In this document: in pieces, positions 7,074 through 60,796 of the stretch | Numbering within the stretch: position 1 is the stretch's first letter | How the letters are laid out: the number at the start of each line of letters is the position of its first letter | Notes under the pieces: model-generated | The model's database searches: none | Told to the model about the DNA's origin: nothing | The model's input: only the letters and a program-made list of their open reading frames with translations | Program-made: the position numbers and the translations under genes | Origin: an uncultured bacterium | GTDB taxonomy: Bacteria; Cyanobacteriota; Cyanobacteriia; Phormidesmidales; Phormidesmidaceae | Direction of reading: 5' to 3' | DNA length: 64,000 bases | Assembly (NCBI GenBank): GCA_964590465.1 | Contig: CAZPYG010000008.1 | Location: 15,418-79,417 of the forward strand

Positions 7074-9761
7074 ATGGACACTCAAACCCAATTCCGCTTC
7101 CGCAGGGATCTGACCGTAACCGTTAAGCCTGCAACAGTTCAAAGCGATGCTCCACGCTATCTGGTGCAAGAACCCAGGTCAGGAGCAACCTTTGAACTGG
7201 GGGAAGAAGAATTTTTTCTATGCCAGTCCTTAGATGGGGTACTGACTCCAGAAGATGTCATGGGTCGGTTTGGAGAGCGTTTCGGCGTCTCTATTACTCC
7301 TGAAGACTATCATCAGTTTCTGGTTCAGATGGATCAGATGGGGCTGTTGGAATCTGTCATGGAACGCCCGGCAGATCACGAAATTGCTCTAGGTCATGCC
7401 CCAGGCAAGGACCCTAAGCTTACAGAGCCTGGCTCAGGTAAGTTTGAGCTTCAAGCCGTTGAAGATTCCCCAGGGTTATATCTCCAGTCCGAGATTAATG
7501 ATCAAGATGATGAGTCTGCAAATGAGTCTAAGCGGGAAGACGATCCGTATCGATTTGCTTTACTCAAGCAGCCGGAACCCCTTTTCGACTTTTTACTGGC
7601 TCTTTGTCGCCCCTTTCGACCCCTGTTCTTACTGTGGACCTGGGCTTTATGGATAGGGGTGCCGATGGCTCTGTTTACCTATTTCAAAAATCAGGATCAA
7701 ATTTGGCAGGATATTGAGTCTCGTCCTGTTTTGACCTTCATTGAGGCGATGATCTTATCCCTATTAACCATCAACCTGTTGATTCGCAGTTCGAAGGGAA
7801 TCGTCAGCCGCTACTACGGCATCACATTAAACGAATTGGGCATCCGCCTGCGCTTTGGGTTTATTCCTCGCTGGTATATTGCCTCCCAGGGTGCCCAGCA
7901 GCTCAGCCGGGAAGACAGGTTATGGTTTTATGGAACCAGTTCTCTGTTGAGGCTATCGATCTTTGTAATTGGGGTGTTTACTTGGAGCTGGTTGAGGGGA
8001 TCGGGCACTCAACTGGCGGTCTGGTCCATCTCCTTTGCCAAAATTGCCCTATTCACCTTTATTATTCTTAGCCTGCCGATACTACCGCGGGACGGTTACC
8101 GCTGGTTTGTCACTTTCTTTAGGTTGCCCCCCAATCTTTGGCAGCAGGCGGCTCAGGTGGCAATTCGGGTTCTGCATCGTCGTCCTTTGCCAACGATTTC
8201 ACCCTGGCTATTGCTTTATGGCCTCGTACTGCTGCCAGTGTGGGTGATTATTATTGTCCGGGTTCTAATTCGCAATTCAATTCGGTTAGCTTCCAGCTTC
8301 CCTGATATTTTTGGTCGAGCAACCTTTTTCATCGTTTTTTGCTTAGCTTTCCTGTTGATTTTGCAGTGGTTATGGCCTCGGTTAAGCAAGCTCATCAAGC
8401 CAGATCAGGCTCGTCAGGCCCCCATGCCAAGGGGGAACGGTCGTTCCCTCAGTCCGACCAACGGACAGACGGCGATCCGGTTCACCGGGTCTAGGCTTTA
8501 TGCGGGGGTACCCGCGCCAACCCCCTGGTATCGACGCTGGCAACTTTGGTTCCTTCTGGTGATTCTGGGTGCGGTGCTATGCTTACCATTTCCCTATCGT
8601 CCTGGTGGCTTCATTCAACTCCTTCCTCCAGAGCAAATGGCAATGCAAGCCCCAATTTCTGGCCAAGTTACCAGAGTCTTTTTCAATGGTGGAGATGGGG
8701 CGCTAATTCCCGCTGGAACCGTTATTGCCACGATTACTTCCTCTGAGCTGGAAAATAACGTTCTGACCCTGCAAGAGCAAGTTAATCAAGCCAAGGCAAA
8801 TCTGGACAAACAGCAGGCCAACCTGAAACAGGTGTCGGCTAAACCCATCCCAGAAGCGGTAGAGGTGGCCAGAAGGCAACTTGAAGTGGCGAAACAGGAG
8901 GTCGCCGTAGCCCGTCAGCGGGTGCAAGAAGCCCAGGAACAGATCGCCATCTTTCAAAGCCAGCTGGAGTCTGCCATGGTTACGGCAGAGTACAGTGCCA
9001 ACGACGTTACCAGACTGGAAAGTTTGGTGAGCCAGGGAGCATTTTCCCAGCAGCAGCTTGAAGAGGCCAAAGAAAGAGCGGCCACCGCCCAGATCAAGGT
9101 CGACATTCAGCGCGGTGAACTATCTGCTGCCCAGCAGAACTTGGTTGAAAGTCAGCAGCAACTCATGACTCAGCAGCGGGTCTTGGAGGAAGAGGAAGCT
9201 CAGTTCCGGTTGGCTTCCACTGGCGCAACGGTCGATGAAATTGAGGCAGCCCGTCAAAATGTTGAAGCCGCCTCAGCCGAACTCAAACGCTTAGAGCAAG
9301 AATGGAAGTTCGCTCAGTCTCAGAATCAAAGTACTAATTTGTTCATGCCTCTGGATGGCAGTCTGGTGGACAGCTACCTCAACCGTAGGGTCGGGACTTA
9401 CATCAACAAAGGGGAAACCTTTGCCTTAGCCCAAAATAACCAAACCTTGTTGGGAGAAATGGAAATACCAGAATATGATTCAGGGGCTATTACTGTTGGT
9501 ACGCCTGCTTCAGTCAAGCTCCTGGCCTACCCTAACCAGCCGTTGACTGGAACAGTTATTTCGGTAGACCCAGTGACTTCAGAAGAAGATTTTGGTTTAG
9601 TCTTTAAAGCCCTTGTCCAATTCACTAACGCAGAAGGTAACCTGAAACCGGGGATGTCGGGCTATGGCAAAATTGATGCTGGTGAGCAACCCTTGATTAT
9701 TCTGCTAACTCGGCCTTTGGTACGATTCTTGCAGGTTGAATTTTGGTCCTGGTTACCCTAG
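7074..9761 (+). CDS. Fusion protein: N-terminal PqqD-like (RRE-like) domain, polytopic membrane region, C-terminal HlyD-family periplasmic adaptor
   Basis: 895-aa ORF. N-terminus 'FELGEEEFFLCQSLDGVLTPEDVMGRFGERFGVSITPEDYHQFLVQMDQMGLL' fits the PqqD pattern. Several hydrophobic helices lie between about residues 170 and 520. The C-terminus has 'APISGQVTRVFF', a long Q/E/A-rich coiled coil and a beta-barrel segment 'VKLLAYPNQPLTGTVISVDP', typical of HlyD adaptors. Confidence 0.7.
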   Translation: MDTQTQFRFRRDLTVTVKPATVQSDAPRYLVQEPRSGATFELGEEEFFLCQSLDGVLTPEDVMGRFGERFGVSITPEDYHQFLVQMDQMGLLESVMERPADHEIALGHAPGKDPKLTEPGSGKFELQAVEDSPGLYLQSEINDQDDESANESKREDDPYRFALLKQPEPLFDFLLALCRPFRPLFLLWTWALWIGVPMALFTYFKNQDQIWQDIESRPVLTFIEAMILSLLTINLLIRSSKGIVSRYYGITLNELGIRLRFGFIPRWYIASQGAQQLSREDRLWFYGTSSLLRLSIFVIGVFTWSWLRGSGTQLAVWSISFAKIALFTFIILSLPILPRDGYRWFVTFFRLPPNLWQQAAQVAIRVLHRRPLPTISPWLLLYGLVLLPVWVIIIVRVLIRNSIRLASSFPDIFGRATFFIVFCLAFLLILQWLWPRLSKLIKPDQARQAPMPRGNGRSLSPTNGQTAIRFTGSRLYAGVPAPTPWYRRWQLWFLLVILGAVLCLPFPYRPGGFIQLLPPEQMAMQAPISGQVTRVFFNGGDGALIPAGTVIATITSSELENNVLTLQEQVNQAKANLDKQQANLKQVSAKPIPEAVEVARRQLEVAKQEVAVARQRVQEAQEQIAIFQSQLESAMVTAEYSANDVTRLESLVSQGAFSQQQLEEAKERAATAQIKVDIQRGELSAAQQNLVESQQQLMTQQRVLEEEEAQFRLASTGATVDEIEAARQNVEAASAELKRLEQEWKFAQSQNQSTNLFMPLDGSLVDSYLNRRVGTYINKGETFALAQNNQTLLGEMEIPEYDSGAITVGTPASVKLLAYPNQPLTGTVISVDPVTSEEDFGLVFKALVQFTNAEGNLKPGMSGYGKIDAGEQPLIILLTRPLVRFLQVEFWSWLP

Positions 9762-9810: not shown

Positions 9811-10728
9811 CTATTGATAGCCAAGCTGCTGAGCCAACTCAATGACTTCGGGAAACAACCCTTTACCATCCCATCGCCAAGGTAGGTCACACTCGGCTAA
9901 GGGCTCTAAAGGAATAGGACGTTGCCGAAAAGCTGGGGAGGTTTGATACCCTGGATTATTGCCCCATTGGGCTCCGTAAGGTCCCATATAAGCATAGGAA
10001 GATTCTTCTGTTCTCAGCATGATTTGGTAAATTTCCTGGCTCCAGGGCAGGTTTAGCCAATGGCAGATTCGCTCTAGATACTGTTCCGGGAAGTTAAGAA
10101 TATCTTCCCCTCGCAGGCACATCTGCTTTTCTGGAGGAACTGTATCAAGAAAGTCGAGAATTCGCTTTTGCTTGTCGAACCAGGCAAACTGAGGGTCCAG
10201 GGTTGCAGGTTGGGTAGAATAATCAACGGCCTTTAGCCCAATCATGGCACTCATGGCGGTTGGGATCTTTAACCAGGAACGGCCTTGAGTCTGAGGATGC
10301 CTGAGTAAGTGTAAGTAGTGGGCATCAGGGAAAGTATTACGGATTCTTTCCAGGATTTCAGGCTGATCGGCGCTGGAATATAAAGGGCTCTTATCGATGA
10401 TGCGCAACGGTGCAACTTGCTCACACAATTCCAGATAAATTTCACTAGTCGATTTTTGCCAGCGCTTGAATATCCAGCGGCGGGCCATATCAACGGTTTC
10501 CTTAGTTTGTTCTCCACCGTAAAGTTGAGCCACGGTTCGTAACAGCCCATGCAACAGGATTTGGCGTGGGCCCTTCATATAAAAAAACAATTCTTCGAGG
10601 GTTTCCTGGGCAAAGAGATTGATCTCGGGAACACTATAGGCCCCCGGATGCTGCCCTACCATGCCACATACAATCGATGTAAATGAAAAAGGAGACGCGA
10701 GAACGAAAACCGGAGAAGCAATGGTCAC
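9811..10728 (-). CDS. Sulfotransferase-family protein (paralog 1, divergent PAPS loop)
   Basis: 305 aa. Alignable over its full length with the ORFs at 15089 and 16033 ('YLHLLRHPQTQGRSW' vs 'YLHLTRHPVSSSKSM'; 'CLRGEDIL' vs 'MRIRGEDVL'; all three end in GYQ). The N-terminal loop is 'SPFSFTSIV' instead of 'SPPRSFSSVV'. Confidence 0.55.
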   Translation of the reverse strand: MTIASPVFVLASPFSFTSIVCGMVGQHPGAYSVPEINLFAQETLEELFFYMKGPRQILLHGLLRTVAQLYGGEQTKETVDMARRWIFKRWQKSTSEIYLELCEQVAPLRIIDKSPLYSSADQPEILERIRNTFPDAHYLHLLRHPQTQGRSWLKIPTAMSAMIGLKAVDYSTQPATLDPQFAWFDKQKRILDFLDTVPPEKQMCLRGEDILNFPEQYLERICHWLNLPWSQEIYQIMLRTEESSYAYMGPYGAQWGNNPGYQTSPAFRQRPIPLEPLAECDLPWRWDGKGLFPEVIELAQQLGYQ

Positions 10729-10882
10729 GACCTTGACGACCTTAAAGTGTGCTTTAGTATCCTTTATAATACCGACATCTGAACGGGATGAGGGAAAACT
10801 AAAAGGAAAATATTTCTGCCGATTCTTGCCTAGAGATTGAAACCTCCAGCGGTGGGGAAATATCGAATATTACCAATAACCC

Positions 10883-11902
10883 ATGTCCAAAAAAAACATT
10901 CTAAAAAGCATCCGCCAGCTGAGGCAAGGATTGAAGTCCTGGTTTTCGGGTTCAACTTCTCCCCCTGCAGGACCTCCAGATTCAATGGTCCGTGAGCTTT
11001 CCGTTACCAGTATTCAGCAACCCGGATTGAGGGTCTATGATATTTCTCCCCAATCCACCGATAGAGCTATAGATGACTGGCTGGATCCTCACTATGCAGG
11101 GGTTAACCTGTCGGAGGCTACTCTGGGACGTCTATTCCTTTTTCTGCCCGGTTCTTACGGCCAGGCTAAGGGGCAACGGCTAATCCTGCAGGAGGCCCTG
11201 GGAATGGGCTACCACGTCATTAGTTTGAGTTATCCCAATTCGTGGACGGTTCATGACCTATGTCGACGCAGCCCTGATCCTGACTGTCATGGCCAAATTC
11301 GCCGAGCCATTTTACAGGGTGCGCCCCTCGCCGACGGAGTTTCCATTAGTAAAGCCAACTGCATTGAAAATAGAATTACCAAGCTGCTGCACTATCTAGC
11401 TATCAACTTTGCCAGCGAGGGGTGGGCAACCTTTCTCCAAGATGATCAACCCCGATGGGATCAGATCGTTGTAGCAGGGCACTCCCAAGGAGGGGGGCAC
11501 GCCGCTATGGTGGCCATGTACTACGAAGTGGCCAGGGTGTTGATGTTGGCGGCTCCCACCGATTTTAGTCATTCCCTAGCGGCTCCCGCTCCCTGGATTA
11601 CCCAACCCCGGGCAACCCCTGCAGAACGCTACTTTGGGTTTAGCCATAGGCAAGATCCTGGATTTAGGCGTCTGAAAGCCACCTGGCAGCAGTTAGGATT
11701 ATCCGAGTTTGGCCCCCCGGTTGATATTGACACCCAGCGACCGCCGTTCAGCGGTTCCCATCAGTTAGTGACCAACGCTGTTCCGGGACGTCCCAATAAG
11801 TATCATGGCAGTATCGTGGTGGACCCATGTTTGCCAAAAGCTGAATCGGCCCGAAAACGGTTGCGGGGGGCATGGCAGTATCTGCTTGGGAGCAGCGATT
11901 AA
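10883..11902 (+). CDS. Alpha/beta-hydrolase-fold protein (GHSQGG nucleophile elbow), cytoplasmic paralog
   Basis: 339 aa with no signal peptide. 'VVAGHSQGGGHAAMVA'. Paralog of the C-terminal half of the ORF at 19279..20718 ('LFLFLPGS'/'LLVFLPGT', 'GYHVISLSYPNS'/'GYHAIGLAYPNS', 'HGSIVVDP'/'HGSVVVDP'). Confidence 0.6.
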   Translation: MSKKNILKSIRQLRQGLKSWFSGSTSPPAGPPDSMVRELSVTSIQQPGLRVYDISPQSTDRAIDDWLDPHYAGVNLSEATLGRLFLFLPGSYGQAKGQRLILQEALGMGYHVISLSYPNSWTVHDLCRRSPDPDCHGQIRRAILQGAPLADGVSISKANCIENRITKLLHYLAINFASEGWATFLQDDQPRWDQIVVAGHSQGGGHAAMVAMYYEVARVLMLAAPTDFSHSLAAPAPWITQPRATPAERYFGFSHRQDPGFRRLKATWQQLGLSEFGPPVDIDTQRPPFSGSHQLVTNAVPGRPNKYHGSIVVDPCLPKAESARKRLRGAWQYLLGSSD

Positions 11903-11914
11903 AGGCTAGAAGAA

Positions 11915-12199
11915 TCAAGCGTCAAATGGCTCACTAATCATAAATTCCCAGCCTTGATCTAGTAGGGCATCCGCCTCAAAAAGGGGGAAGTCTGGGGCAC
12001 TTTCACTTAAACTCGATTCGAATACTGTTTCCCTAGCCTCAATTTGCTCCCAAAACTCATCCGTATTTTCCACATTCTTTAAATACAAATTAAGAAGTTC
12101 TGATTCCTCTTCATCCAAAGCGATTCCTTGCTGATGACGATTCAACAAGGTTTCTAGATATTCCAGTAAGATGTCAAAACCATTGGTATCAAAATCCAT
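11915..12199 (-). CDS. Small, very acidic hypothetical protein (94 aa)
   Basis: ORF track only. It is rich in D/E and has no recognisable motif. It fills the gap between the flanking genes. Confidence 0.4.
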   Translation of the reverse strand: MDFDTNGFDILLEYLETLLNRHQQGIALDEEESELLNLYLKNVENTDEFWEQIEARETVFESSLSESAPDFPLFEADALLDQGWEFMISEPFDA

Positions 12200-12391
12200 A
12201 GTCTGCCCAAATATCGACGGAAGTTAAGGATAAATGCCGATAATCATGTTAGCATTGCTAACATTCTTTCCCCATAAGATTGAGATTTCATATCCTGGGA
12301 ATAATTTAAGTTTTGTTATTCTATTATGTCAGTTTTGATACTATTCGCTGATCTTTAGATGCTTGGCAGAGATAGCTAGCTTCACAACACA

Positions 12392-13918
12392 ATGACCATG
12401 CAAACCTACAATCCGGAACCCCAACCGGGATTCCGTGCCTCAGACTTCCGCAAAGTTAATGAAAACGGCTTCGGTGACCGTTACAACGCCTATGCTTATA
12501 GTTCTGCCTGGTTTAAGGACCACCTTTACATTGGGACCGGTCGGGCAAATCTCTGTCTGCTGAAATTTGCCATGCCCTTCATCAAGATGGACGTCTGGCC
12601 AGTGGATTGCCCCCATCGGAACTATACCCCTGAATTTGAGCATAGGGCTGCGCGGGGTGAGATCTGGCGTTACAGTCCGTTAACGGATCTCTGGGAACGC
12701 GTTTACCAATCCCCCCTTGTCGAGGATGAAGACGGCACGGTATACAGTCGGGATCTGGGGTATCGCTCCATGATCGTCTACCAGGGCGATTCTGACCCTG
12801 AACCGGCCCTATATGCTGCGGCCTGGGGGCGTTCTCGCAGCACCGGGCTGGAGATTTTACGCTCTGTCGATGGGGTACATTTCGAGCCCATACCCAAACC
12901 CCGATTCCAGAGTGCCGGTGGAGATTTATTGCCCATTACCGCCATTCGGGTGTTTATTCCCTTCAAGGGGAAGCTTTACACAGCCCCCACAGGAACCGCT
13001 CGTAGTAGCGTCAATGCTGCTCTGAGTTCGTTAATTTATGAAACGAGTGACCCCGCCTCAGGGCAATGGCAGTCGATCAATGATCCTGGCTTTGGTCCTC
13101 CCATCGATATTAAAACGATTCAGGCGGGCAAGGTCGAAGTTGCCGTGGTTTACGATATGGCAGCTTTTGGAGATTATTTATATGCCGGAACAGCCGGGGA
13201 CTTTGGCTTCCAATTGTGGCGCAGTCGGTGCGAGGGAGACCGCGCCTATGAATGGGAACAGGTTTTGGCGGGTGGGGCCGGACGAGGGGGGTTGAACCAG
13301 GGACCGGTGTCCATGCAGGTGTTCCAGGATGCCCTGTACATCGGTACAGGCATTCAAAACGGCGGGTACGACCGGCGTGCTAAGCTCGGTCCAGCGGCCG
13401 CTGAAATCATTCGAGTTTACCCAGACAACTCCTGGGATATTGTGGTGGGCAATCCGCGAGACGGTAAAGCTCCTATCAGCTCTCTGAATGCTGGGTTTGG
13501 CCACTACTTTTGTGGATACATTTGGCGTATGGCTATCCATGATGGCTGGCTGTACGCAGGCACTATGGATTGGACCATCATTCTGCGCTATAGCAATCTT
13601 AAGGAAAAGCCTTTACGCATTTCTAAACTCATGGCGGGGGCCGGGTTAGACGATTACATCAATTTATACGGGGGATTCGATCTGTGGCGCACCAAGGATG
13701 GCGAAAACTGGGTTCAGGTCACCCATACTGGCTTTCATAATCCCTATAACTATGGCTGCCGCGGTATTATCTCCACGCCCCATGGCTTATTTGTTGCCTC
13801 TGCTAATCCCTTCGGGCCTAAGGTAGCAACCCAGCCCGACCGACAAAAATGGGAATGGGTCTATGAAGACAACCCAGCAGGCGGATTAGAAGTTTGGTTC
13901 GCTGCACAAAAAGAATAA
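12392..13918 (+). CDS. Beta-propeller-like repeat protein, hypothetical (paralog A)
   Basis: 508 aa. A motif recurs about every 50-70 aa: 'HLYIGTG', 'KLYTAPTG', 'YLYAGTAG', 'ALYIGTG', 'WLYAGTM', 'GLFVASAN'. Paralog of 17127..18491 ('FGFQLWRS..YEWEQVL' vs 'QGFQLWKT..YSWELVL'; 'IRVYPDNSWDIVVG' vs 'YRIYPDNQWDLIVG'). Confidence 0.6.
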   Translation: MTMQTYNPEPQPGFRASDFRKVNENGFGDRYNAYAYSSAWFKDHLYIGTGRANLCLLKFAMPFIKMDVWPVDCPHRNYTPEFEHRAARGEIWRYSPLTDLWERVYQSPLVEDEDGTVYSRDLGYRSMIVYQGDSDPEPALYAAAWGRSRSTGLEILRSVDGVHFEPIPKPRFQSAGGDLLPITAIRVFIPFKGKLYTAPTGTARSSVNAALSSLIYETSDPASGQWQSINDPGFGPPIDIKTIQAGKVEVAVVYDMAAFGDYLYAGTAGDFGFQLWRSRCEGDRAYEWEQVLAGGAGRGGLNQGPVSMQVFQDALYIGTGIQNGGYDRRAKLGPAAAEIIRVYPDNSWDIVVGNPRDGKAPISSLNAGFGHYFCGYIWRMAIHDGWLYAGTMDWTIILRYSNLKEKPLRISKLMAGAGLDDYINLYGGFDLWRTKDGENWVQVTHTGFHNPYNYGCRGIISTPHGLFVASANPFGPKVATQPDRQKWEWVYEDNPAGGLEVWFAAQKE

Positions 13919-13944
13919 ATCCGGGATGTCCTAGGGTTAGAAAC

Positions 13945-15075
13945 CTAGGCAACCGGTTCAGGGGCAAACCCCAGGGCCTCCATATAGGCCTGGTGGTACT
14001 CATAAACCTGTTGTTCAGCCTGACTAAAAATGCCGCCGCGATAGTTGTTGTCCGTAAGACTGTTGAGCCCTAGTTGGACCTGTTGACAAATATCAAAATC
14101 TTCTTCTGTTACGACCCGAGGGAAACCCAATAATTCAGGAGCAAGGAGGCCACATTCCTGCAGTTTTTGCTCTTGCTCTGGGCTCATCTTGCATAAATAG
14201 ACGTAGTTTTTGACTAAGGTTTCTTGGGGCCCGATGGGATGAACCGTAGAAACCGTTAAGATAACCCCCTGGGAAGTCCAAAATACCAGGGAGGGAAACA
14301 CAACATAGTGGTGATACCGGTTGCTTTGAAAGTCGCGGTCAGCAAGAATATCGACGAGGTGCAAAATAGCCTTACCGGCTTTGACGGGTTTTGCATGGTA
14401 ATGAAAATGAGGGGAATCCGACAGGAAAACTTCGTCCTCTACGGCGGCGTACTTGCCAAAGGTTTTTCCATGGACCGTTAACAGGTGATAACCCTCCAGA
14501 GTGTTCTCAACAAACAACTTCCAGTTGGCCTGTATTACTTTTTCAAAGAAGTCTACCTGTTTACCCATGGCTGCTGAAAATTCCAGAATCAGCTCATAGG
14601 TTTTGCCCAGATAGTCTTTCAGACCTGGACCCTGATCATCGCGCTTAATGAATACCCAAGTTCCACATTGATCCACTTGCCAGGCTTCCAACTGCAGATT
14701 GCCCTTTTCCGCTTCGGTTAAATGGTCAAATTCTGCCTGTCGCAACACATTGATAGGAACACCTTCGCTATTGAATTTCCAGCCATGGTAAGGGCACTGC
14801 AGGGGACCATTGCCTTTATCACCCCGCTGAATTCGGGTAAAACGGTGGGTACATACATTCTGGAAGGCGCGCAGTTGGCCGTTAAAGTTTTGAACTACGA
14901 CCGTTTGCCCGCCCACATCAGCACAGATGTAGTCGTTGTGGTTCTGCAAATTATCAACCGTGCCGATAAACGTCCAGTTTTTCTGCCACAGCTTTTGTTC
15001 CTTAGCAAAAATATCGGGGTCGGTATAGAAAGAGGGAGGAATCAGAGGCTTCATAACTATTCTCCACAGTGACAA
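13945..15075 (-). CDS. Rieske [2Fe-2S] non-heme iron oxygenase, alpha-subunit type
   Basis: 376 aa. Rieske motif 'CTHRFTRI...CPYHGWKF'. Mononuclear-iron region 'ANWKLFVENTLEGYHLLTVH'. Confidence 0.85.
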   Translation of the reverse strand: MSLWRIVMKPLIPPSFYTDPDIFAKEQKLWQKNWTFIGTVDNLQNHNDYICADVGGQTVVVQNFNGQLRAFQNVCTHRFTRIQRGDKGNGPLQCPYHGWKFNSEGVPINVLRQAEFDHLTEAEKGNLQLEAWQVDQCGTWVFIKRDDQGPGLKDYLGKTYELILEFSAAMGKQVDFFEKVIQANWKLFVENTLEGYHLLTVHGKTFGKYAAVEDEVFLSDSPHFHYHAKPVKAGKAILHLVDILADRDFQSNRYHHYVVFPSLVFWTSQGVILTVSTVHPIGPQETLVKNYVYLCKMSPEQEQKLQECGLLAPELLGFPRVVTEEDFDICQQVQLGLNSLTDNNYRGGIFSQAEQQVYEYHQAYMEALGFAPEPVA

Positions 15076-15088
15076 TATGGGGCCAGCG

Positions 15089-16021
15089 CTATTGATACCC
15101 CATCAGGTTGGCCAGGTGCATGACTTCTTCCGTGAGCTGCTTCTCTGAGGTCAACTCTAACCCAGCATTACTGAATCGTTCCCTGGCATCTTCTTTAACC
15201 CATATGACCCCTTCTTGTTCAACGTAGTCTGCGAAACTGGGTTCCTTCACTTTGCCCTGGCGCAATCGAGGATTTTCACAAAACTTTTTGTCGTTACCTC
15301 CGGGGGCCGGGTCTGGTCCAACGAAAGCATAGGGAGAATTTTCAGGATGTTTCATGGCCTCAATCGCCTGGGCATCGGTGCGCAGGCCCATCCACTCGGC
15401 AATTTGGGGTAAAAATATATCCGGTTCAGACAAGACATCTTCTCCCCGAATCCGCATGGTTTGCCCCGTGGGTAATTTTCGGGTGAAATTTAATATATTG
15501 GCGTGGGTTTTGTACCAAAGCAAAATATAGTTCTTGCCACCTTCCAGTTGCCACAAATCCTCAAAAAACTCACGCATGGACTTAGAGCTAGACACGGGGT
15601 GACGGGTCAGGTGAAGGTAATAGGCATTGGGAAACTGAGCATAGGCTCTTTCCAAAAATAAGTCCCGAGTGGCGGTTTCGGGACTCTTTTCTACCCCAAT
15701 TAAGGGATTGATTTCAGCTAAAAGATAGTCGTAGAGTTTCTTGGTAGGCCAGTCTCGCCTTTCCTGCAGCCAAGCAATGGCCTTGAGAATGGTTCCGGTT
15801 GTTTGCACTCCATCGTGAATCTGGGCCAAAGCCCGGACGACTCCATAGGGGCCAAAACGAACCCGCATCCCCCTTTGATGGGCAATGACTTCTTCGACCG
15901 TATCCCCATTAAACAAATGCAGTTCTGGGAAACAGTACAATTCAGGATGTTCCCCAATCATTGTGGATACGACCGACGAAAATGAACGGGGCGGGGAGAG
16001 AATGATCAGCAGTTCTGGCAT
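15089..16021 (-). CDS. Sulfotransferase-family protein (paralog 2)
   Basis: 310 aa. 'LSPPRSFSSVVSTMIGEHP' (5'-phosphosulfate loop-like) and 'YLHLTRHPVSSSKSM' (3'-phosphate motif-like, R-x7-S). Tandem with paralog 3 across an 11-nt gap. Confidence 0.65.
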   Translation of the reverse strand: MPELLIILSPPRSFSSVVSTMIGEHPELYCFPELHLFNGDTVEEVIAHQRGMRVRFGPYGVVRALAQIHDGVQTTGTILKAIAWLQERRDWPTKKLYDYLLAEINPLIGVEKSPETATRDLFLERAYAQFPNAYYLHLTRHPVSSSKSMREFFEDLWQLEGGKNYILLWYKTHANILNFTRKLPTGQTMRIRGEDVLSEPDIFLPQIAEWMGLRTDAQAIEAMKHPENSPYAFVGPDPAPGGNDKKFCENPRLRQGKVKEPSFADYVEQEGVIWVKEDARERFSNAGLELTSEKQLTEEVMHLANLMGYQ

Positions 16022-16032
16022 AATCCTATGCT

Positions 16033-17013
16033 CTATTGATAACCCATTAAATGTGCCAATTTTGTCATGGTATGGCCAATGTCATCACGGGTTCCATTTT
16101 CATACCCTAATCGCCGGGCCATTTCCCAGGTTTCCTGCTCATTGAGTTCCGCTAAAGCTTCTGGTAAAAAGGCTTCGAGGGAAGGTTCTTTTACTTTGCC
16201 TACCCTGAGTTGTGGACTGAGCATAAACTTAAGGTCGTTGCCTCCCCGGGCGGGAGAAGGACCAACACAGGCGTAGGGAGAATTTTCGGGGTGCTTCATA
16301 GCTTCGATTGCAGCAGTATCTGTGCGGATGCCCACCCACTCCGCGATTTGCGGTAAGTATTGGTCAGGATCGCTTAACAAGTCTTCTCCCCGAATCCGCA
16401 TGGTTTGGCCAGTGGGCAGTTGACTGGTAAATTCCATGATATTTCGATGCATTTCGTACCATTCAAGGGTATGGTACATTCGTTTGGGTCCCCGGGTGTG
16501 CATCGACCGCAAGAGCATGTCTTGGTTAAACTCTTTTCTTGATTTTGTAGCTGAAACAGGATGACGAACTAAATGCAGAAAGAAAGAATTGGGATACTGT
16601 TTATAAGCCCGTTTCAGATTGCGTATGCGCCGGGAGGTGACTGGGCTTTTTTCCACCCCTATCTGCGGGTTCACCTTTTCCAACAGGTAGTCCATCATAT
16701 CTTTCGTGGACCAGTCCCGACGATCGTGTAGCCACACAATGGCACGGGAAATAGATTCTGTCGTCTGAACTCCATCATGCAGTTGAGCCAAAGTTCTTAA
16801 AAGCCCATGGGGACCACAATAGCGGTTCTTACTCTTGATTTCATGCTCAATTAATTGGCCAACCGTGTCTTCCACAAACAAGTGAAGTTCCGGGAAGCCA
16901 TATAAATCGGGGTGTTCACCAATTACCGTAGACACCACCGAAGAAAAGGATCGGGGGGGAGAAAGCATGACGAAAAGTTCATCCATGGCAAAACCTTCAT
17001 ACCTCTCAGGCAA
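16033..17013 (-). CDS. Sulfotransferase-family protein (paralog 3)
   Basis: 326-aa ORF. 'LSPPRSFSSVVSTVIGEHP', 'FLHLVRHPVSATKS', 'LPTGQTMRIRGEDLL'. By alignment with paralog 2, the start may instead be the ATG at 16986 (MDELFVMLSPP), which has GAAGG upstream. Confidence 0.65.
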   Translation of the reverse strand: MPERYEGFAMDELFVMLSPPRSFSSVVSTVIGEHPDLYGFPELHLFVEDTVGQLIEHEIKSKNRYCGPHGLLRTLAQLHDGVQTTESISRAIVWLHDRRDWSTKDMMDYLLEKVNPQIGVEKSPVTSRRIRNLKRAYKQYPNSFFLHLVRHPVSATKSRKEFNQDMLLRSMHTRGPKRMYHTLEWYEMHRNIMEFTSQLPTGQTMRIRGEDLLSDPDQYLPQIAEWVGIRTDTAAIEAMKHPENSPYACVGPSPARGGNDLKFMLSPQLRVGKVKEPSLEAFLPEALAELNEQETWEMARRLGYENGTRDDIGHTMTKLAHLMGYQ

Positions 17014-17126
17014 CGTTTGACAGAACGTTTTTTCAAGATAATCTGTTCATATCATCTAAACAGCAAGGCAAATGTAGCCTAGACTAAACAAAGCCAATTC
17101 AATGGGATGATCCAAAAAACTCGCGG

Positions 17127-18491
17127 TTAAGGTTGCGGAGCTGCCTTGCACAACCATAATTGTTTCCGACTCAGATCTACGGAATTAACCCGATCCATAG
17201 CTAACACCAACCCTAGGGGCGTTGAAATCGCCTGTTGGACATCGACTCTAAAGGCATCACTTAACCCTTCGATAGCCGTCGATGACCATTGTTCACCATC
17301 CTGGGTAAACCAGAGATTAAAATTTTCAACCGTTTGGACACAGCAGTAAAGCAGGTTTTCGTGAACGGCCATGTACGGATATACCGGATTGGCCGGTGGT
17401 TCTTCAAAGCCTGGCCCCATCACAGAAAGAGGAACTTTAAGACCAGCAGGTGAATATTTCGGTGCTCCGACGATTAAGTCCCACTGATTATCAGGGTAAA
17501 TGCGGTAAAGTTCGCTACCGGCCCAGAAAAATCCCGGTTTTTCTAATGAATCTGACAGCGCCAAACTAGTAGAGCCATACAGGCAATTCTGGAAAACTTC
17601 CAGGGAGGTGATCATTCCATTTAGAGCATAGCCATAGCCGCCTTTTTCTAAAACAAGTTCCCAGCTATAAGGAGGTTCACCGTCAGCCGAGGTTTTCCAA
17701 AGCTGAAACCCCTGAACCGGATTATGGGTAGCCGCATATAAAGCATTCTGGAAAACGGTTAAAGCGGTAACGGCTTGATTTCTAGGATCTCCGAAACCTG
17801 GACAGTTTGCGGGTTGCCAATCGCCTGACTCAATCGCGTTAGCGACATAAATTACAGCCTGCTGCTTAGCACTTTGCTTTTGGCTGGCAACCGGTAGAGC
17901 AAAAAAATTACCGTTGAAAGGCTGTATCTGACGTCCTGGTTTATTGGCATCAACCGGTGAAAACGAGACCCCATCCGAAGACTTTAGCAGCTCCGATTTG
18001 GACGACGAAGAAAAGCTAATGTATAGGTTGAGAGATGACAGTTTTCCATCAGGAACTGTGACTGCCTCAGCCTGCAATTGATACCCTTGGGGAACAGGGT
18101 TTTGATCGGCATCATCGGCCTTGAAAACCGCTTCTGGCCCTGCCGGTAACGTTTCCTGGTAGATGGTTTTCCAACTCCCTTCACTCGGGTTAAAGCAGAG
18201 GACCTGACGAATTTCTTCTAGAAGTTCAGGGAAGTAGCCAATAGACGCTAGAAATAGCAGATCTTTGAAGAATACAATAGAAAAATCAACGTTCTCGGCT
18301 GGGCTGGGCAGATCCTCCGGTGTGATATCAACGAAAGTATGGGCTGGAGATGGCGAAGGCGACTGTACAATAGCTGAAATCGGTTTTTCCTGTAGCTTTG
18401 GCTCTTCTTTCCGAGTTAAACCCTGTACCAACTCGGTGAACTTTGCCTTTAATCCAGACGTCTTCTTCAACAAAGTAACTACGTTTCCCAT
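17127..18491 (-). CDS. Beta-propeller-like repeat protein, hypothetical (paralog B)
   Basis: 454 aa. Motifs 'ALYAATHNPVQGFQLWKT', 'CLYGSTS', 'LLYCCVQTVENFNLWFTQDGEQW'. Paralog of 12392..13918. Confidence 0.6.
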   Translation of the reverse strand: MGNVVTLLKKTSGLKAKFTELVQGLTRKEEPKLQEKPISAIVQSPSPSPAHTFVDITPEDLPSPAENVDFSIVFFKDLLFLASIGYFPELLEEIRQVLCFNPSEGSWKTIYQETLPAGPEAVFKADDADQNPVPQGYQLQAEAVTVPDGKLSSLNLYISFSSSSKSELLKSSDGVSFSPVDANKPGRQIQPFNGNFFALPVASQKQSAKQQAVIYVANAIESGDWQPANCPGFGDPRNQAVTALTVFQNALYAATHNPVQGFQLWKTSADGEPPYSWELVLEKGGYGYALNGMITSLEVFQNCLYGSTSLALSDSLEKPGFFWAGSELYRIYPDNQWDLIVGAPKYSPAGLKVPLSVMGPGFEEPPANPVYPYMAVHENLLYCCVQTVENFNLWFTQDGEQWSSTAIEGLSDAFRVDVQQAISTPLGLVLAMDRVNSVDLSRKQLWLCKAAPQP

Positions 18492-18520
18492 CGTTATATG
18501 GCTTTTAAGTTTACCGCTGC

Positions 18521-19132
18521 CTATGTAATCGCGGGCTCACTATTAGAGGGAGCATCGCTGGCATCGTCTGCTTGAACAGCTTTGACAGCCCGTACATGTA
18601 CCTCAATGGCTTCTAGCTCTTTTTGAGTCATCACTAGAGCCTCTTTAAGGATGTTGTAACGGTACTGAACCTCTTTTCGATATTGCTCAATTTCGTCTAA
18701 AGTCGACGAACTCGGATGGAAGGTGGTGTCAGCACTGTACAACCAAGTATGCATATGCTTCAGAAAAGCACTTCCTCCCAGTTGGTCCAGCAATGCCTGA
18801 CTGGGGGGTCGTTTATCTTTGGGTAACTCAGAATCAACGACATTATCTTGATCGGGCAAGTTCTGAGCTTCTGGATCAGGCTGAGTAAAGGGATTTTCAG
18901 CAGCTTGATTGACTGGCCCACCTTTATCTGGCCTGGGCCGACTGTTTTTAACTTCCAGGTAACGCCGAAGCAAGTCGATTTTGGTCTCAGGACCTTCTTT
19001 TACCTTAACCAGGCGGGAAATCTCTGGCCGGTCGCCCTGTACTTCAAGTTCCCGTCGAGGTTCTTTACGTCGTTCCCGTAATTGCTGTAGAGCTGTTTGT
19101 CGCTTTTGCTCAAGGTCGCCGTGATTTGCCAT
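18521..19132 (-). CDS. Hypothetical charged protein (203 aa)
   Basis: ORF track. K/R/E-rich N-terminus and a predicted helical C-terminus. It is packed in the same-strand gene string, 29 nt from the next gene. Confidence 0.45.
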   Translation of the reverse strand: MANHGDLEQKRQTALQQLRERRKEPRRELEVQGDRPEISRLVKVKEGPETKIDLLRRYLEVKNSRPRPDKGGPVNQAAENPFTQPDPEAQNLPDQDNVVDSELPKDKRPPSQALLDQLGGSAFLKHMHTWLYSADTTFHPSSSTLDEIEQYRKEVQYRYNILKEALVMTQKELEAIEVHVRAVKAVQADDASDAPSNSEPAIT

Positions 19133-19278
19133 GGTGAATTAGTAGACACGCACCGAACTGATTAATCTATGGATTGTAGCGCTCCTTTCATTATTAATGG
19201 CAACAGCTTAGCAATAAACCGGGCAGGAGGTAAATCGTGTTTAGACAGTTGACGAATTTGATTTAATGAATTTCGTTT

Positions 19279-20718
19279 TTAAAGCCCCTGATTGAGTATA
19301 AATCCCCATACTTCAGTATAAAGCGGTTCACCACTGGGTAAAATCGGAGTCGCCGGGTCTACGACAACGCTCCCATGTTCAGCTCCAGCAACTTGGGGAG
19401 ACGCTGATGTAACCAGTTGGCGCGAATTACCGTAAGGGGGGGCTGCCTGATCAACATTTACGGGTGGACCGAAGTTATCTAGCCCCAGTAGGGCAAACGC
19501 ATCTAACTGTTTCGGGAAAGGGAATATTGGGTCATTGATGTGTTGAAAAGTAAAATAGCTTTCGATCGGAGTTAAAGAATCTTCTGCTAACCATGGAGCA
19601 AAATCGTTAAAAATACGGATGTGATCCAGCTCTGGAGCGAACAAAACTGCCCCTGCTAGTCTCCTATTCTTAGCAATAATGGCTGCATGCCCTCCCCCTT
19701 GGGAATGACCAGCAAGGACAACCTGACTCCATCGAATCTCTCCATTCCCCAAAAAGGTAGACCAACCCTGCTCGGGATACTGTAAGGCTAGGTAGCGAAG
19801 GACTTGTAAGAGTCGATTCTGAATTGAATCAGCTGCGGTGATAGTGACCCGATTACTACGGTCAGTGCCATCAGCTATTTCTAAACGAAAATTTTCCGCA
19901 CAGTCAGGATTTCGGATAAAACCACACCCCTTAGCACTGGTAACCGCAGTTGAATTAGGATAAGCCAGTCCAATGGCATGATAACCAAGAGCTGCCGCCT
20001 GCTGAGCAATCAACCGATTACTCAGGGGAGAACCATTGGTGCCGGGTAAAAAAACTAATAGTCTTCCTTGCGGTTGAACAGCCGAATCTACAGTGACATA
20101 GTGCGGACCCTTCGGCTCGGCAATGTTTCGATCAGTGGCAACGGAAGGGATGACATACTCTACTAAAGTTGGACTTTTGGGAGGATTGTTTTCCAGGGCA
20201 GCGGCAGTTAAAAAGTAAGGAGTACTAAGGGCCCCAGCCTCCAACGTAATGACATAATCTCCGGCTGCAAGGGACACGGCAATCGCTTCAGGCAAAGGTC
20301 CAGGGTTAGAGGATGCGGCAATGATATTTCCATTGCCATCCTTTAAGCTCATATCAACATTGGCCTCTAACCCAAACAAGTTAATGTTGAAATTATTGGC
20401 AGCTTTTAGGGTAAAAGGTAGAGTCGATGCTTCGTTACCCTGCAAGTCCCCTTGGGCCTGCGCAATTTGAATGTCTTTTCCTTCAAGACTGGCAGTAATT
20501 TCGGACACAGGACGGGCTGAAAAAAGAACCGTTGGCTCAGACATCTCTGGGGTTTCCCCATGCATTTCTGGCCCAAGGGTCCAGAATCCAGCCTTCAAGG
20601 GATTAACAGGGACTAAGGCAGCTGCTGCTCCTGGCGTAGCCAGGGATAGGCCGAGGGTAAAACAGGACAGCCTAACGGCAAAAGGTCTGAGCATGATTTC
20701 CACTTTTGATAGTTGCAT
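19279..20718 (-). CDS. Secreted protein: signal peptide + PPC (pre-peptidase C-terminal-like) domain + GHSQGG alpha/beta-hydrolase domain
   Basis: 479 aa. Hydrophobic N-terminus 'LSCFTLGLSLATPGAAAA'. PPC-like segment 'NVDMSLKDGNGNIIAASSNPGPLPEAIAVSLAAGDYVITLEA'. 'LAGHSQGGGHAAIIA'. Confidence 0.6.
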   Translation of the reverse strand: MQLSKVEIMLRPFAVRLSCFTLGLSLATPGAAAALVPVNPLKAGFWTLGPEMHGETPEMSEPTVLFSARPVSEITASLEGKDIQIAQAQGDLQGNEASTLPFTLKAANNFNINLFGLEANVDMSLKDGNGNIIAASSNPGPLPEAIAVSLAAGDYVITLEAGALSTPYFLTAAALENNPPKSPTLVEYVIPSVATDRNIAEPKGPHYVTVDSAVQPQGRLLVFLPGTNGSPLSNRLIAQQAAALGYHAIGLAYPNSTAVTSAKGCGFIRNPDCAENFRLEIADGTDRSNRVTITAADSIQNRLLQVLRYLALQYPEQGWSTFLGNGEIRWSQVVLAGHSQGGGHAAIIAKNRRLAGAVLFAPELDHIRIFNDFAPWLAEDSLTPIESYFTFQHINDPIFPFPKQLDAFALLGLDNFGPPVNVDQAAPPYGNSRQLVTSASPQVAGAEHGSVVVDPATPILPSGEPLYTEVWGFILNQGL

Positions 20719-21058: not shown

Positions 21059-22615
21059 ATGCGTCGTTTATCTATTCTTGTAAAAGCCGCGGTGTTAGCA
21101 GCGACAGGCGTTTCATTAACTCAGGGGAATGTCAGTGCCTGTTCTGATACAACATCTTACTGGATTGATTCTTCCGGCCAGTGTGCCGACCTGTCTAATC
21201 TGGCTCAACCGAGCCCGCTCAATGCTGAAGTAGATGCCGGACAATTGGACATCACTCCTAGACCTAGAAGCGTCAATAATTTTGTTGGGGTGTCGGATCC
21301 GGAAGACTCCTTTCAGTTTTTCCTGCAGGCTCCCAGCAGAGTTGAGTTTACCTTGAGTGAATTGACGCAAGGCGCAAATCTCATTCTCACTGATCCTCTG
21401 GGTAACATCATTGCCAGGTCTACCAATGGTGGCACTCAGGATGAACTGATTTCCGAGGAGTTGGAACCGGGAGACTATGTTGTAGTCGTCAGGTCGACCA
21501 AAGACAATAGCACCAGCTACAGGCTAACGGCCCGGGCCGTCTACTTGACCGATGAAATCGCCATTCAATTCGACCAGGCCGATATTACGGATCCAGAGTT
21601 TTATGGTGATGACAGAGCCCAAGTTACCTGGCAGGACAGAAGTGGAAATCTATGGGTGGCCCCGGTGTTGCCCTCCGGAGATTTTGACTTACCCCAGGCC
21701 CAAATTGTCACAGACGGGTTAGCGCCGATTCCGGCCCCTAATGGAACGGGTAATGGTCCGGAATGGGGCCTAACGGAACGTGGGGTAGGCATTCTTTATA
21801 CGGCGCTCATTAACGGCGACTTTTTCCTCGGGCTGGCAGAATATATTAACAACGCCTGGACCACGAGTATATTGCCCAACAGTAAGTTTGGGCATTCCCC
21901 TTTCGGGACGTTTCTCTCTAATGACCCCAAACCTTTAACGGCATTTTTCGTTGGCACCCCCGAAACTCGCAGGCAGGCTATCGCCTGGGGTTCAGTTGCC
22001 CAACCTGACGATGGAGGCCTGGTTCCCTTTACTCGCGATGATCAGGGTAATACAGAAGGCATCCGATGGGTGGAAGGTGAGCGCTCCCTGGTGTACGTGT
22101 TGCCGATCGATGACATCAGACAGGCCGTTCGCTACAACGTCGATACCGGGCAACTGGCTCAACTGACAACGAACCAAACCCAGAAAGGGGCTGTCTTCAT
22201 GTGGCAGGCTCCTGAGTATGGGGGCGAATTGCTGATTATGGTCAAAGAATCGGAGGGACCAAACTCGCGGCTGTTTAGTTCGGTTGGAATTTTCCGCAAT
22301 ATTGGGGGAGAGTGGGTTCGAATTAAGCGGATTCAACCCCCCAGTGACCTGGCTGAAATTCGCTCCCCCGAACCTTTTACTTATCAAGGAAAATCCTATA
22401 TCTCGATGTTAGTGGAAGATGACAAGCAGGATCCCTCAGAAGTCTGGATAGCTGGTATAGATCCCGAAGTCGAATTTTATCGTCAGGTTAGCGATCCTAA
22501 CCTCGATAACCTGGTCAGGAATGACCCAGAGCCGTTTGAAACCGCAGATGGTATGTTTGTGTACTATGCGATTCGGGGTAGAGGAGTCGTTGTCAGAGCT
22601 AATACTGGTCTTTAA
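21059..22615 (+). CDS. Secreted protein: signal peptide + PPC-like domain + beta-rich (propeller-like) domain, hypothetical
   Basis: 518 aa. 'LVKAAVLAATGVSLTQG'. PPC-like 'DSFQFFLQAPSRVEFTLSELTQGANLILTDPLGNIIARS...LEPGDYVVVVRS'. Full-length paralog of 27087..28583. Confidence 0.6.
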   Translation: MRRLSILVKAAVLAATGVSLTQGNVSACSDTTSYWIDSSGQCADLSNLAQPSPLNAEVDAGQLDITPRPRSVNNFVGVSDPEDSFQFFLQAPSRVEFTLSELTQGANLILTDPLGNIIARSTNGGTQDELISEELEPGDYVVVVRSTKDNSTSYRLTARAVYLTDEIAIQFDQADITDPEFYGDDRAQVTWQDRSGNLWVAPVLPSGDFDLPQAQIVTDGLAPIPAPNGTGNGPEWGLTERGVGILYTALINGDFFLGLAEYINNAWTTSILPNSKFGHSPFGTFLSNDPKPLTAFFVGTPETRRQAIAWGSVAQPDDGGLVPFTRDDQGNTEGIRWVEGERSLVYVLPIDDIRQAVRYNVDTGQLAQLTTNQTQKGAVFMWQAPEYGGELLIMVKESEGPNSRLFSSVGIFRNIGGEWVRIKRIQPPSDLAEIRSPEPFTYQGKSYISMLVEDDKQDPSEVWIAGIDPEVEFYRQVSDPNLDNLVRNDPEPFETADGMFVYYAIRGRGVVVRANTGL

Positions 22616-26992: not shown

Positions 26993-27086
26993 AAAAATCT
27001 AAGTCTCCTTGCCATGAAATCTGAATACACTTATCCATTCTTTGCTGGAATTTTATTTTTTCTATTGCACTAAGAGGTCAAGTTAA

Positions 27087-28583: not shown

Positions 28584-28640
28584 AAGGGTGATTATTCCTA
28601 GTAAATCACACAGTTAGTTTCGTAACATCGAAGATGCTCG

Positions 28641-28680
28641 GAGTGTTGGGTTCCGCTAGCGCTCCACCCAACCTACGTTG
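28641..28680. repeat. Short palindromic element (GTTGGGT ... ACCCAAC), resembling dispersed cyanobacterial intergenic repeats
   Basis: GTTGGGT (28645-28651) and ACCCAAC (28666-28672) flank a GCTAGC-centred core. I recognise the 'GTAGGTTGGGT..ACCCAAC' type from memory only. Confidence 0.3.
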
Positions 28681-55852: not shown

Positions 55853-56026
55853 AGCTGTTTCGCATATTGAGCGTAATACACCGTCGAGCCTGGGGCAGTT
55901 TCCCCGGGCGTCCAAACCTGGCGGATGGCTGCTATCAGGGGCGGGATTTGGGGCCTGGATAACTGAGCCCTTGATGATGCAGCCTGTTAGTCACCTTTTG
56001 GTTTAAGCGAAAGCCCTCCGAAAAAC

Positions 56027-59008: not shown

Positions 59009-59130
59009 GGTGTAAACCTTGTTGCAATGAGCCTTTCTATCTATACGGAATGTGCGTAACCCACTCCCCTAGGGCCTGCGGTGTGGGCAGGCAAAAAAAG
59101 AACTTTGTTCTAAACCAGAAAACAACAGGA

Positions 59131-60787: not shown

Positions 60788-60796
60788 AGGGCAGAT

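Follow-up and report, generated by a model that had tools for sequence, protein, structure and literature searches.

What does a string of sulfotransferases, hydrolases and propeller-like proteins do beside an atypical polyketide synthase (PKS) in a cyanobacterium? The question is raised by a block at 9811-20718 of the window, that is, the whole 64,000-nucleotide stretch of Phormidesmidaceae DNA that was analysed. The initial annotation described this block as a twice-repeated module and a candidate undescribed sulfation system. The nine open reading frames (ORFs) that it claimed are all present where it placed them, and the gaps of the minus-strand string from 20718 down to 13945 (146, 29, 113, 11 and 13 nt) are exact. 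The answer proposed here is that the block represents the tailoring and export arm of a cluster that O-sulfates a hydroxylated lipid made by a PKS, a reading to which we give a probability of roughly 0.55. The features of the block are the following (ORFs are named below by first coordinate and strand).

9811 to 10728, minus strand: sulfotransferase of the Glu-x-Asn subtype, with the loop Arg replaced by Phe (Sulfotransfer_3, 66 bits)
10883 to 11902, plus strand: serine alpha/beta hydrolase of the BPSS1187 family (GHSQGGG), without signal peptide (NF047580, 279 bits)
11915 to 12199, minus strand: orphan acidic ORF of 94 residues
12392 to 13918, plus strand: type-1 beta-propeller, a highly conserved core protein (no Pfam family; AlphaFold2)
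13945 to 15075, minus strand: Rieske non-haem-iron oxygenase, alpha subunit (Rieske and Ring_hydroxyl_A)
15089 to 16021, minus strand: sulfotransferase of the Glu-x-His subtype, with PRSFSS, PELHLF, EKSP and RHP motifs (Sulfotransfer_3, 62.4 bits)
16033 to 17013, minus strand: sulfotransferase of the Glu-x-His subtype (Sulfotransfer_3, 66.3 bits), 56% identical to 15089-
17127 to 18491, minus strand: type-2 divergent beta-propeller paralog (homology to 12392+)
18521 to 19132, minus strand: charged protein of 203 residues with a conserved, coiled-coil-like C-terminal region of ~70 residues (phmmer, tblastn)
19279 to 20718, minus strand: secreted BPSS1187-family hydrolase with signal peptide, PPC domain and hydrolase domain (NF047580, 248 bits)

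The first piece of evidence concerns the nature of the sulfotransferases. The trio recognised in the initial annotation (9811-, 15089- and 16033-) matches Pfam Sulfotransfer_3 above its cut-off of 27 bits and is paralogous, with identities of 56% (E 1e-128) and 32% (E 5e-47); all three are separate genes, encoding 305-326 residues. Among solved structures, they matched only the sulfotransferase (ST) domains of CurM and of olefin synthase (OLS), with E values of 1e-17 to 1e-23, the best solved relative of 9811- being CurM ST (E 1.6e-23). The same searches matched neither a solved tyrosylprotein sulfotransferase (E <= 1) nor Stf0. In the alignment, the phosphosulfate loop reads SPPRSFSS in 15089- and 16033- versus SSPRSGST in CurM, and both proteins keep the catalytic PELHLF, the EKSP lysine and the RHP 3'-phosphate motif. 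In 9811-, PEINLF, DKSP and RHP are kept and the 5'-phosphosulfate loop is ASPFSFTS, so that the loop motif is partly matched. A motif census of ~110 sulfotransferases from related loci found the phosphosulfate-binding (PSB) loop, the catalytic Glu, the active-site Lys and RHP to be near-universal, and distinguished two subtypes, Glu-x-His and Glu-x-Asn; 9811- was the sole member with Phe for the Arg of the loop. Judged by these motifs, the three window sulfotransferases are of the CurM/OLS type and are predicted to depend on 3'-phosphoadenosine-5'-phosphosulfate (PAPS), a donor whose binding and catalytic motifs are kept, at sequence-motif level, as the initial annotation had presumed.

The second piece of evidence came from the surroundings of related genes in other organisms. 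Relatives of the propeller were scanned in one genome per species, with a match in at least 204 species; the best 80 genome loci were retained (the closest propeller among them being 66% identical to 12392+), giving 83 loci in total for neighbour searches; 46 loci have complete 10-kb flanks. These 80 loci belong to Cyanobacteria, Gamma- and Alphaproteobacteria, Verrucomicrobia, Acidobacteria, Rokubacteria and Nitrospiria. Searches with the window proteins recovered the propeller in 82 of the 83 loci, the sulfotransferase in 64, the BPSS1187 hydrolase in seven and the Rieske oxygenase in one. At full-flank loci, a sulfotransferase is found in 41/46, an alpha/beta hydrolase in 36/46 and an HlyD-type gene in 26/46. 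The median gap between a sulfotransferase gene and the nearest propeller gene is 25 bp, and the two families occur as one and one (16 of the 46 loci), two and two (8) or three and three (3). The two families travel together outside the source genome, as the initial annotation had anticipated, and pair about one-to-one: the conserved unit consists of these two, the BPSS1187 hydrolase and the Rieske oxygenase being accessories of particular lineages.

The propellers themselves are homologous to each other, as had been noticed from the sequence (29% identity over 290 residues, E 4e-34), and neither belongs to a Pfam or NCBIfam family. The AlphaFold2 model of 12392+, built with 25 homologues, is a beta-propeller (predicted local distance difference test, pLDDT, 89.4; predicted TM-score, pTM, 0.91), for which Foldseek returned only generic WD40, Kelch and glycoside-hydrolase propellers (query TM-score, TMq, <= 0.43). 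More than 1000 close homologues of 12392+, with 50-68% identity, exist in Cyanobacteria and Gammaproteobacteria, all of them annotated as hypothetical, and a profile search covering 1.84 billion cluster representatives yielded 3885 family members at E <= 1e-3 and 650 at E <= 1e-30. The alignment of type-1 propellers has 95 invariant columns, 13 of which are Arg; 17127- retains 38 of these 95 residues and has lost most of the 13 Arg, so the two window propellers are unlikely to be functionally equivalent. Copies of type 2 adjoin sulfotransferases in 18 loci. The nearest named relatives of the window propellers are found in Phormidesmis and Leptolyngbyaceae.

The initial annotation read the presence of two sets as a module repeated locally, a notion that had to be given up. 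The same two-paralog layout, comprising a type-1 and a type-2 propeller, sulfotransferases of the 9811 type and of the 15089/16033 type, a BPSS1187 hydrolase, an HlyD fusion and a charged protein, is also found in Anabaena PCC 7108, Rhabdochromatium, Prochloron, a Chromatiaceae metagenome-assembled genome (MAG) and a Terrimicrobiaceae MAG. Because of this recurrence, it is regarded as an ancient architecture, transferred between phyla, and not as a local duplication. The accompanying claim of a small charged protein in each set held for 18521-, in its C-terminal ~70 residues only (homologues of residues ~110-196 were seen in 8 of the 83 loci by phmmer at E <= 1e-5, and in ~15 by tblastn), and failed for 11915-, which has no Pfam or NCBIfam family and no tblastn match in the 83 related loci, and which probably lies outside the system.

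Which substrate might such enzymes decorate? A clue lies to the left of the block, where three genes are found.

1 to 4326, minus strand: PKS resembling polyunsaturated fatty acid (PUFA) synthases, N-terminal 1442 residues with PfaD-like enoyl reductase (ER), ketosynthase (KS) and acyltransferase (AT); the gene continues beyond the left edge of the window
5474 to 6508, plus strand: tetratricopeptide repeat (TPR) protein, conserved neighbour of the HlyD fusion (Pfam TPR)
7074 to 9761, plus strand: HlyD/membrane fusion of 895 residues, putative export component (HlyD_D23/HlyD_3, TIGR01730)

The atypical PKS mentioned in the initial annotation is the first of these, an open-ended ORF, and its residues 10-1440 are homologous to PKS ORFs lying within 10 kb of the propeller in 25 of the 83 loci, from five phyla. 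Residues 13-1440 align to the PKS of locus L012, which is full-length and reads ER(NMO)-KS-AT-ACP-ACP-KR-DH, where ACP is acyl carrier protein, KR ketoreductase and DH dehydratase (Pfam NMO, KS, AT, two PP-binding domains, KR and PS-DH). The tandem ACP, KR and DH, together with a KS/chain-length factor (CLF) partner and a phosphopantetheinyl transferase (PPTase), are seen in the relatives L012, L085 and L086; the window gene ends at the left edge. Judged by its domains, the L012-type synthase is iterative and similar to PUFA synthases and to the heterocyst-glycolipid (Hgl) synthase.

The PKS is not the sole recurrent neighbour. Neighbouring ORFs were clustered de novo and cluster representatives were compared with Pfam, which gave the following families.

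Abhydrolase_1 gene that immediately precedes the propeller gene and overlaps it: 33 loci
Phosphodiest/alkaline-phosphatase-like gene of ~533 residues: 32 loci
TauD dioxygenase: 24 loci
DSID-motif protein of ~100 residues, interpreted as an acyl carrier protein, without a Pfam match: 23 loci
KS-AT PKS: 17 loci
Chlorophyllase/platelet-activating factor acetylhydrolase (PAF-AH)-like hydrolase: 17 loci
small sulfatase-like protein: 16 loci
esterase of the poly(3-hydroxybutyrate) (PHB)-depolymerase type: 15 loci
short-chain dehydrogenase/reductase (SDR): 10 loci
ER-KS-AT PKS: 9 loci
KR-DH PKS: 7 loci

In many relatives, TauD occupies the place of the window Rieske oxygenase, and Abhydrolase_1 that of the BPSS1187 hydrolase. 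The ACP-like gene of ~100 residues, the 533-residue Phosphodiest gene and Abhydrolase_1 follow one another in constant order in L035 (e.g., 1-2205), L036, L070, L085 and L086. Standing beside a carrier protein, the Phosphodiest-family protein might cleave the phosphopantetheine arm.

This catalogue bears on the view that the sulfotransferases tailor a sulfated exopolysaccharide or glycolipid, acting on sugars whose synthesis is encoded elsewhere in the genome. Cyanobacteria do produce sulfated exopolysaccharides, and TPR, HlyD-like and secreted proteins as well as a sulfatase are present. However, neither the window block nor the recurrent neighbour families include a glycosyltransferase (whose absence from the block had been noted initially), Wzx/Wzy or a sugar-nucleotide gene, and what recurs are PKS, ACP-like and hydrolase genes, which leaves this explanation barely plausible.

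The initial annotation had also stated that the block has no transporter, which is inaccurate for its immediate surroundings because the conserved HlyD/membrane fusion gene adjoins it at 7074-9761. The encoded protein consists of a cytoplasmic N-domain, six hydrophobic segments (183-506) and a C-terminal periplasmic HlyD/RND-adaptor domain. Its membrane part gives a weak M50-like match to LiaK/YydH (E 6.6e-4) and contains no HExxH motif. The fusion family is present in 32-35 of the 83 loci and that of the TPR protein (cluster c6) in about 25-26; an ABC transporter was absent from the recurrent neighbour families. A likeness by eye of the N-terminus of 7074+ to a PqqD domain or RiPP recognition element (RRE), RiPP standing for ribosomally synthesized and post-translationally modified peptide, was dropped, as Pfam gives nothing there even at E 0.05.

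An HlyD-type gene adjoining a sulfotransferase recalls the RaxST/RaxX/RaxAB system, in which a sulfotransferase gene likewise adjoins that of an HlyD-family adaptor. By this analogy a secreted peptide, or the PPC-domain proteins, would be sulfated and exported by the HlyD fusion. The LiaK/YydH-like match and the several secreted PPC-domain and small charged proteins close by are in keeping with it. Nevertheless, when small ORFs of 25-69 residues outside the conserved genes were clustered over 82 loci, no family was common to more than three of them, these being closely related genomes, and a RiPP precursor peptide was rejected on that basis; the acidic ORF 11915- is an orphan. The sulfotransferases are of the CurM type, with no solved tyrosylprotein sulfotransferase among their matches, and a C39-peptidase ABC transporter is lacking. 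In addition, the PqqD/RRE look of the fusion is unsupported by Pfam, and the context is one of recurrent PKS and ACP-like genes. Sulfation of a protein or peptide is therefore considered highly unlikely. The initial annotation had suggested a polyketide or lipid acceptor and held a protein or peptide to be equally open; the former is now strongly favoured, given the recurrence of PKS and ACP-like genes and the absence of any conserved gene for a small peptide, and the parity between the two has been lost.

The hydrolases and the oxygenase offer further information. As initially proposed, 10883+ and the C-terminal half of 19279- are paralogous (41% identity, E 6e-73), and both match NCBIfam NF047580, the BPSS1187 family, above its cut-off of 125 bits. 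The GHSQGGG motif is invariant in 24 sequences of this family, as are S201, H255, D258, H308 and D314. The N-terminal half of 19279- has a hydrophobic leader and a weak PPC match (22.9 bits, under the Pfam cut-off of 25.9). The AlphaFold2 model of 10883+ (pLDDT 88.9) retrieved by Foldseek only generic carboxylesterases, lipases, cutinases and chlorophyllase (TM <= 0.46), and no PKS thioesterase was matched by the window hydrolase in sequence or fold searches. With regard to function, the literature names the BPSS1187 locus only as a polymerase chain reaction (PCR) target in B. pseudomallei. The Rieske oxygenase 13945- carries, as expected from the initial assignment, Rieske and Ring_hydroxyl_A domains, with the CxH-x17-CxxH cluster ligands and an Hx4H motif. 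Its nearest solved relatives are alpha-only oxygenases such as the carnitine monooxygenase CntA, and no gene for a reductase or ferredoxin partner was seen in the block. It is possibly the hydroxylase; the proposal that hydroxylation precedes O-sulfation is plausible, its basis being the order of the genes only.

A crucial clue to the role of the propellers was derived from a set of sister clusters. Many of the top matches of the propeller family are ~780 residues long, with the propeller at the N-terminus. Among 60 such proteins, Pfam identified 23 with a class-I S-adenosylmethionine (SAM) methyltransferase, two with a PlsC-type acyltransferase and one with an NAD-dependent reductase. Three fusion genes could be seen in context, in Desertifilum, a Nitrospiria-related metagenome contig and an ENA contig (L084 1-12304, L085 1-17092 and L086 1-15544), and in all of them a propeller-SAM methyltransferase fusion follows a Pfa-like PKS and Abhydrolase_1. 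The order in L085 and L086 is Pfa-like PKS, ACP-like protein of ~100 residues, Phosphodiest, Abhydrolase_1 and propeller-methyltransferase, followed by further methyltransferases and SDRs, and one of these two longer loci adds a PHB-type esterase and an HlyD-like gene; the shorter Desertifilum locus contains the PKS, Abhydrolase_1 and the fusion only. No sulfotransferase is found within 10 kb in the methyltransferase-fusion clusters. What stays constant is a core of PKS, hydrolase and propeller; the decorating transferase varies, being a methyltransferase fused to the propeller in one branch and, in the other, sulfotransferases encoded beside it, about one for each propeller. As in Rosetta-stone fusions, the propeller is predicted to be the partner of that transferase, since the fusions share the PKS/ACP-like/Phosphodiest/Abhydrolase_1 context. 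This swap of sulfotransferase for methyltransferase constitutes the strongest clue to the role of the window propellers and sulfotransferases.

What the methyltransferase branch makes can be approached by analogy. The structures of polymethoxy-1-alkenes have been described and their PKS origin presumed, with no genes named (PMC3497026), and no biosynthetic genes for polymethoxy-alkenes were found in the literature search. The methyltransferase-fused clusters are a candidate for the polymethoxy-1-alkene pathway of cyanobacteria. A more specific version, which we hold rather unlikely to be right in full, would make the propeller a substrate-presenting (processivity) partner for the decoration of PKS-made 1,3-polyols. 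The methyltransferase branch would then lead to polymethoxy-1-alkenes, and the sulfotransferase branch, to which the window belongs, to polysulfated polyol lipids that have so far escaped detection and are exported by a dedicated HlyD-membrane fusion in over 200 species (Cyanobacteria, Proteobacteria, Verrucomicrobia, Acidobacteria and Nitrospirae).

The same evidence has to be confronted with another explanation, namely, that the logic of CurM and OLS operates in trans: a beta-hydroxyacyl-ACP would be sulfonated, the hydrolase would cleave the thioester, and decarboxylative elimination would produce one or more terminal alkenes free of sulfate. The STs of CurM and OLS (ACP-ST-thioesterase module, PDB 4gbm, 4gox) are the sole solved relatives of the window enzymes and belong to the same subfamily (~30% identity over ~215 residues), sharing the PSB loop, the Lys, RHP and the catalytic Glu-x-His, which is kept in 15089- and 16033-. 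The PKS context and the alpha/beta hydrolases adjoining the sulfotransferases are also alike. Polymethoxy-1-alkenes of cyanobacteria bear the 1-ene/4-oxy pattern expected of CurM-type chemistry, which fits this explanation. In contrast to the CurM and OLS domains, which are embedded after an ACP in the PKS, the window sulfotransferases are free-standing and multiple and have a C-terminal extension of ~90 residues. There are two to four of them per cluster, tracking the number of propellers, and a single off-loading step would not need so many. The hydrolases here are BPSS1187 or Abhydrolase_1 proteins, not a PKS thioesterase domain, and their folds match esterases and cutinases. Moreover, the replacement of sulfotransferases by methyltransferases in the sister clusters points to a decorating role, and sulfatase-like genes recur. 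Off-loading in trans thus appears unlikely, and the sulfate, unlike that in CurM/OLS, is probably retained on the product.

Beyond the block, on its right side, three further genes might belong to the system.

21059 to 22615, plus strand: secreted PPC-domain protein, possible peripheral member (PPC match)
25451 to 26992, plus strand: secreted formylglycine-type sulfatase, possible peripheral member (Sulfatase and SGSH_C)
27087 to 28583, plus strand: secreted PPC-domain paralog of 21059+, of uncertain membership

The two PPC-domain proteins are 39% identical, and homologues of 21059+ occur in just one or two related loci. The sulfatase has a signal peptide and a CAPSR motif; it has a direct homologue in one of the 83 loci, and a smaller sulfatase-like family (c15) is present in 16. 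Two further proteins downstream have hydrophobic N-terminal leaders and no assigned family. The GC content over 24000-30000 (sulfatase, PPC paralog and secreted proteins) is 0.40-0.42. Since this is lower than in the sulfotransferase block (0.47-0.50), the membership of the sulfatase/PPC region is uncertain, and it may be a separately acquired islet and not part of the cluster.

All these observations can be integrated in a model in which the window from 1 to ~21 kb (perhaps ~31 kb) would be one arm of a "secondary-lipid" biosynthetic cluster. From the gene families, motifs, co-occurrence, pairing, PKS linkage and transferase swap, we infer which substrate is used, in what order the steps follow, what becomes of the sulfate and what the propeller and the hydrolases do. 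In the first step, an iterative PKS similar to PUFA or heterocyst-glycolipid synthases would build a long, partly hydroxylated acyl chain, with ER-KS-AT inside the window and ACP-ACP-KR-DH beyond its edge, by analogy with L012. In the second, the CurM/OLS-type PAPS-dependent sulfotransferases would O-sulfate hydroxyls of the chain, bound by, and presented to each of them by, a dedicated beta-propeller. The Rieske oxygenase (TauD elsewhere) would add an extra hydroxyl in a third step, and the cytoplasmic BPSS1187 serine hydrolase (10883+) would release or de-esterify the chain in a fourth. In the fifth, the HlyD-membrane fusion and its TPR partner would move the anionic product over the envelope, where, as a sixth step, the secreted PPC-hydrolase and the sulfatase could trim it extracellularly.

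Several facts weigh against sulfation of a PKS-made lipid as the function of the block. Elsewhere, the propeller gene is preceded by ACP-like, Phosphodiest and Abhydrolase_1 genes, none of which is seen in the window, and a PKS lies within 10 kb in only 25/83 loci, many contigs being short. The block includes no gene for PAPS synthesis, as initially noted, and none was seen elsewhere in the window or in 82 of the 83 loci; the sole PAPS-supply gene among them is an APS (adenosine 5'-phosphosulfate) kinase gene at 5207-5794 of L001, inside the compact cluster of Anabaena sp. PCC 7108. Because the loop Arg is replaced by Phe, 9811- may be an impaired or inactive pseudo-enzyme, or may have another mode of donor binding. 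The modelled folds of propeller and hydrolase, with their generic matches, give no functional clue. In addition, the closest solved sulfotransferases, those of CurM and OLS, use sulfate as a leaving group and not as a decoration, and the sulfatase/PPC region differs in GC and is rarely syntenic.

Comparison with known systems reveals shared logic and different parts. The sulfolipid-1 locus of Mycobacterium tuberculosis (Stf0, Pks2, PapA1/2, Chp1 and MmpL8) likewise unites a PKS-made lipid, a PAPS sulfotransferase, an accessory enzyme of serine-hydrolase fold and an exporter in a single locus; its sulfate is placed on trehalose, not on the polyketide, and its sulfotransferase, hydrolase and transporter families are unrelated to those of the block. 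The Hgl/DevBCA system, in which a heterocyst-glycolipid synthase is coupled to HlyD-type (DevB) export, follows a similar overall logic, with sulfate replacing sugar. The Pfa (PUFA) synthase and Hgl clusters share the iterative multidomain PKS with PfaD-like ER, KS-AT, tandem ACP, KR and DH, as well as tailoring genes and an HlyD-family membrane-fusion protein beside the synthase. They differ in that tailoring here is by sulfotransferases or methyltransferases and not by a glycosyltransferase, and in that they contain nothing equivalent to the propeller, the alkaline-phosphatase-like protein or the hydrolase; the exporter component is here fused to an M50-like membrane domain, with no ABC partner in the cluster. 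In the swf cluster of sponge symbionts (SwfA, a PKS/fatty acid synthase (FAS); SwfB, a reductase-sulfotransferase; SwfC, a radical SAM protein), an alkyl sulfate product has been proposed and a mono-modular iterative PKS/FAS is coupled with a sulfotransferase (PMC3908369). Its PKS, however, is KS-AT-DH-ER-KR-ACP, its sulfotransferase is fused to a thioester reductase, it includes no propeller, HlyD fusion or hydrolase, and it is known from sponge symbionts only (PMC3908369); swf was rejected as a match for this difference in architecture. No published description of the sulfotransferase-propeller-PKS cluster was found in full-text literature searches, in agreement with the initial idea of an undescribed sulfation-type system. 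On its gene content, the block would be an orphan PKS cluster of the sulfated-lipid type with a new core protein family.

The remainder of the window provides some separate observations. A fourth Sulfotransfer_3 gene (49547-50560, plus strand) was considered as a member and rejected, as it belongs to an unrelated subfamily, with only ~20% identity to the cluster sulfotransferases; its loop, TQRSGSN, is canonical, and it adjoins a gene for a ChrA-type chromate transporter (50581-51846, plus strand). The mreBCD genes start at 31838. The nitrogen stress-induced small RNA NsiR1, of a family known mainly from heterocyst-forming cyanobacteria, is found at 38255-38306 of the plus strand (Rfam 60.8 bits versus a gathering score of 39). 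An unrelated chemotaxis-like operon on the minus strand (52628-62445) encodes a CheA-type hybrid kinase, a GAF/HAMP methyl-accepting protein, CheW, a response regulator and a phosphonate-type binding protein.

The exchange of transferases around a constant PKS-hydrolase-propeller core offers a natural comparison for the role of the propeller, and Anabaena sp. PCC 7108 is a named strain whose compact, APS-kinase-bearing version is suited to direct testing. The methyltransferase branch, in turn, points to specific candidate genes for the polymethoxy-alkene toxins. If the proposal is true, it would give a function to a large propeller family that has no Pfam entry and reaches 68% identity between phyla. 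It would likewise reveal, in hundreds of bacterial species, a class of sulfated PKS-derived lipids that has been overlooked, standard lipid work-ups being prone to lose or miss sulfate esters.

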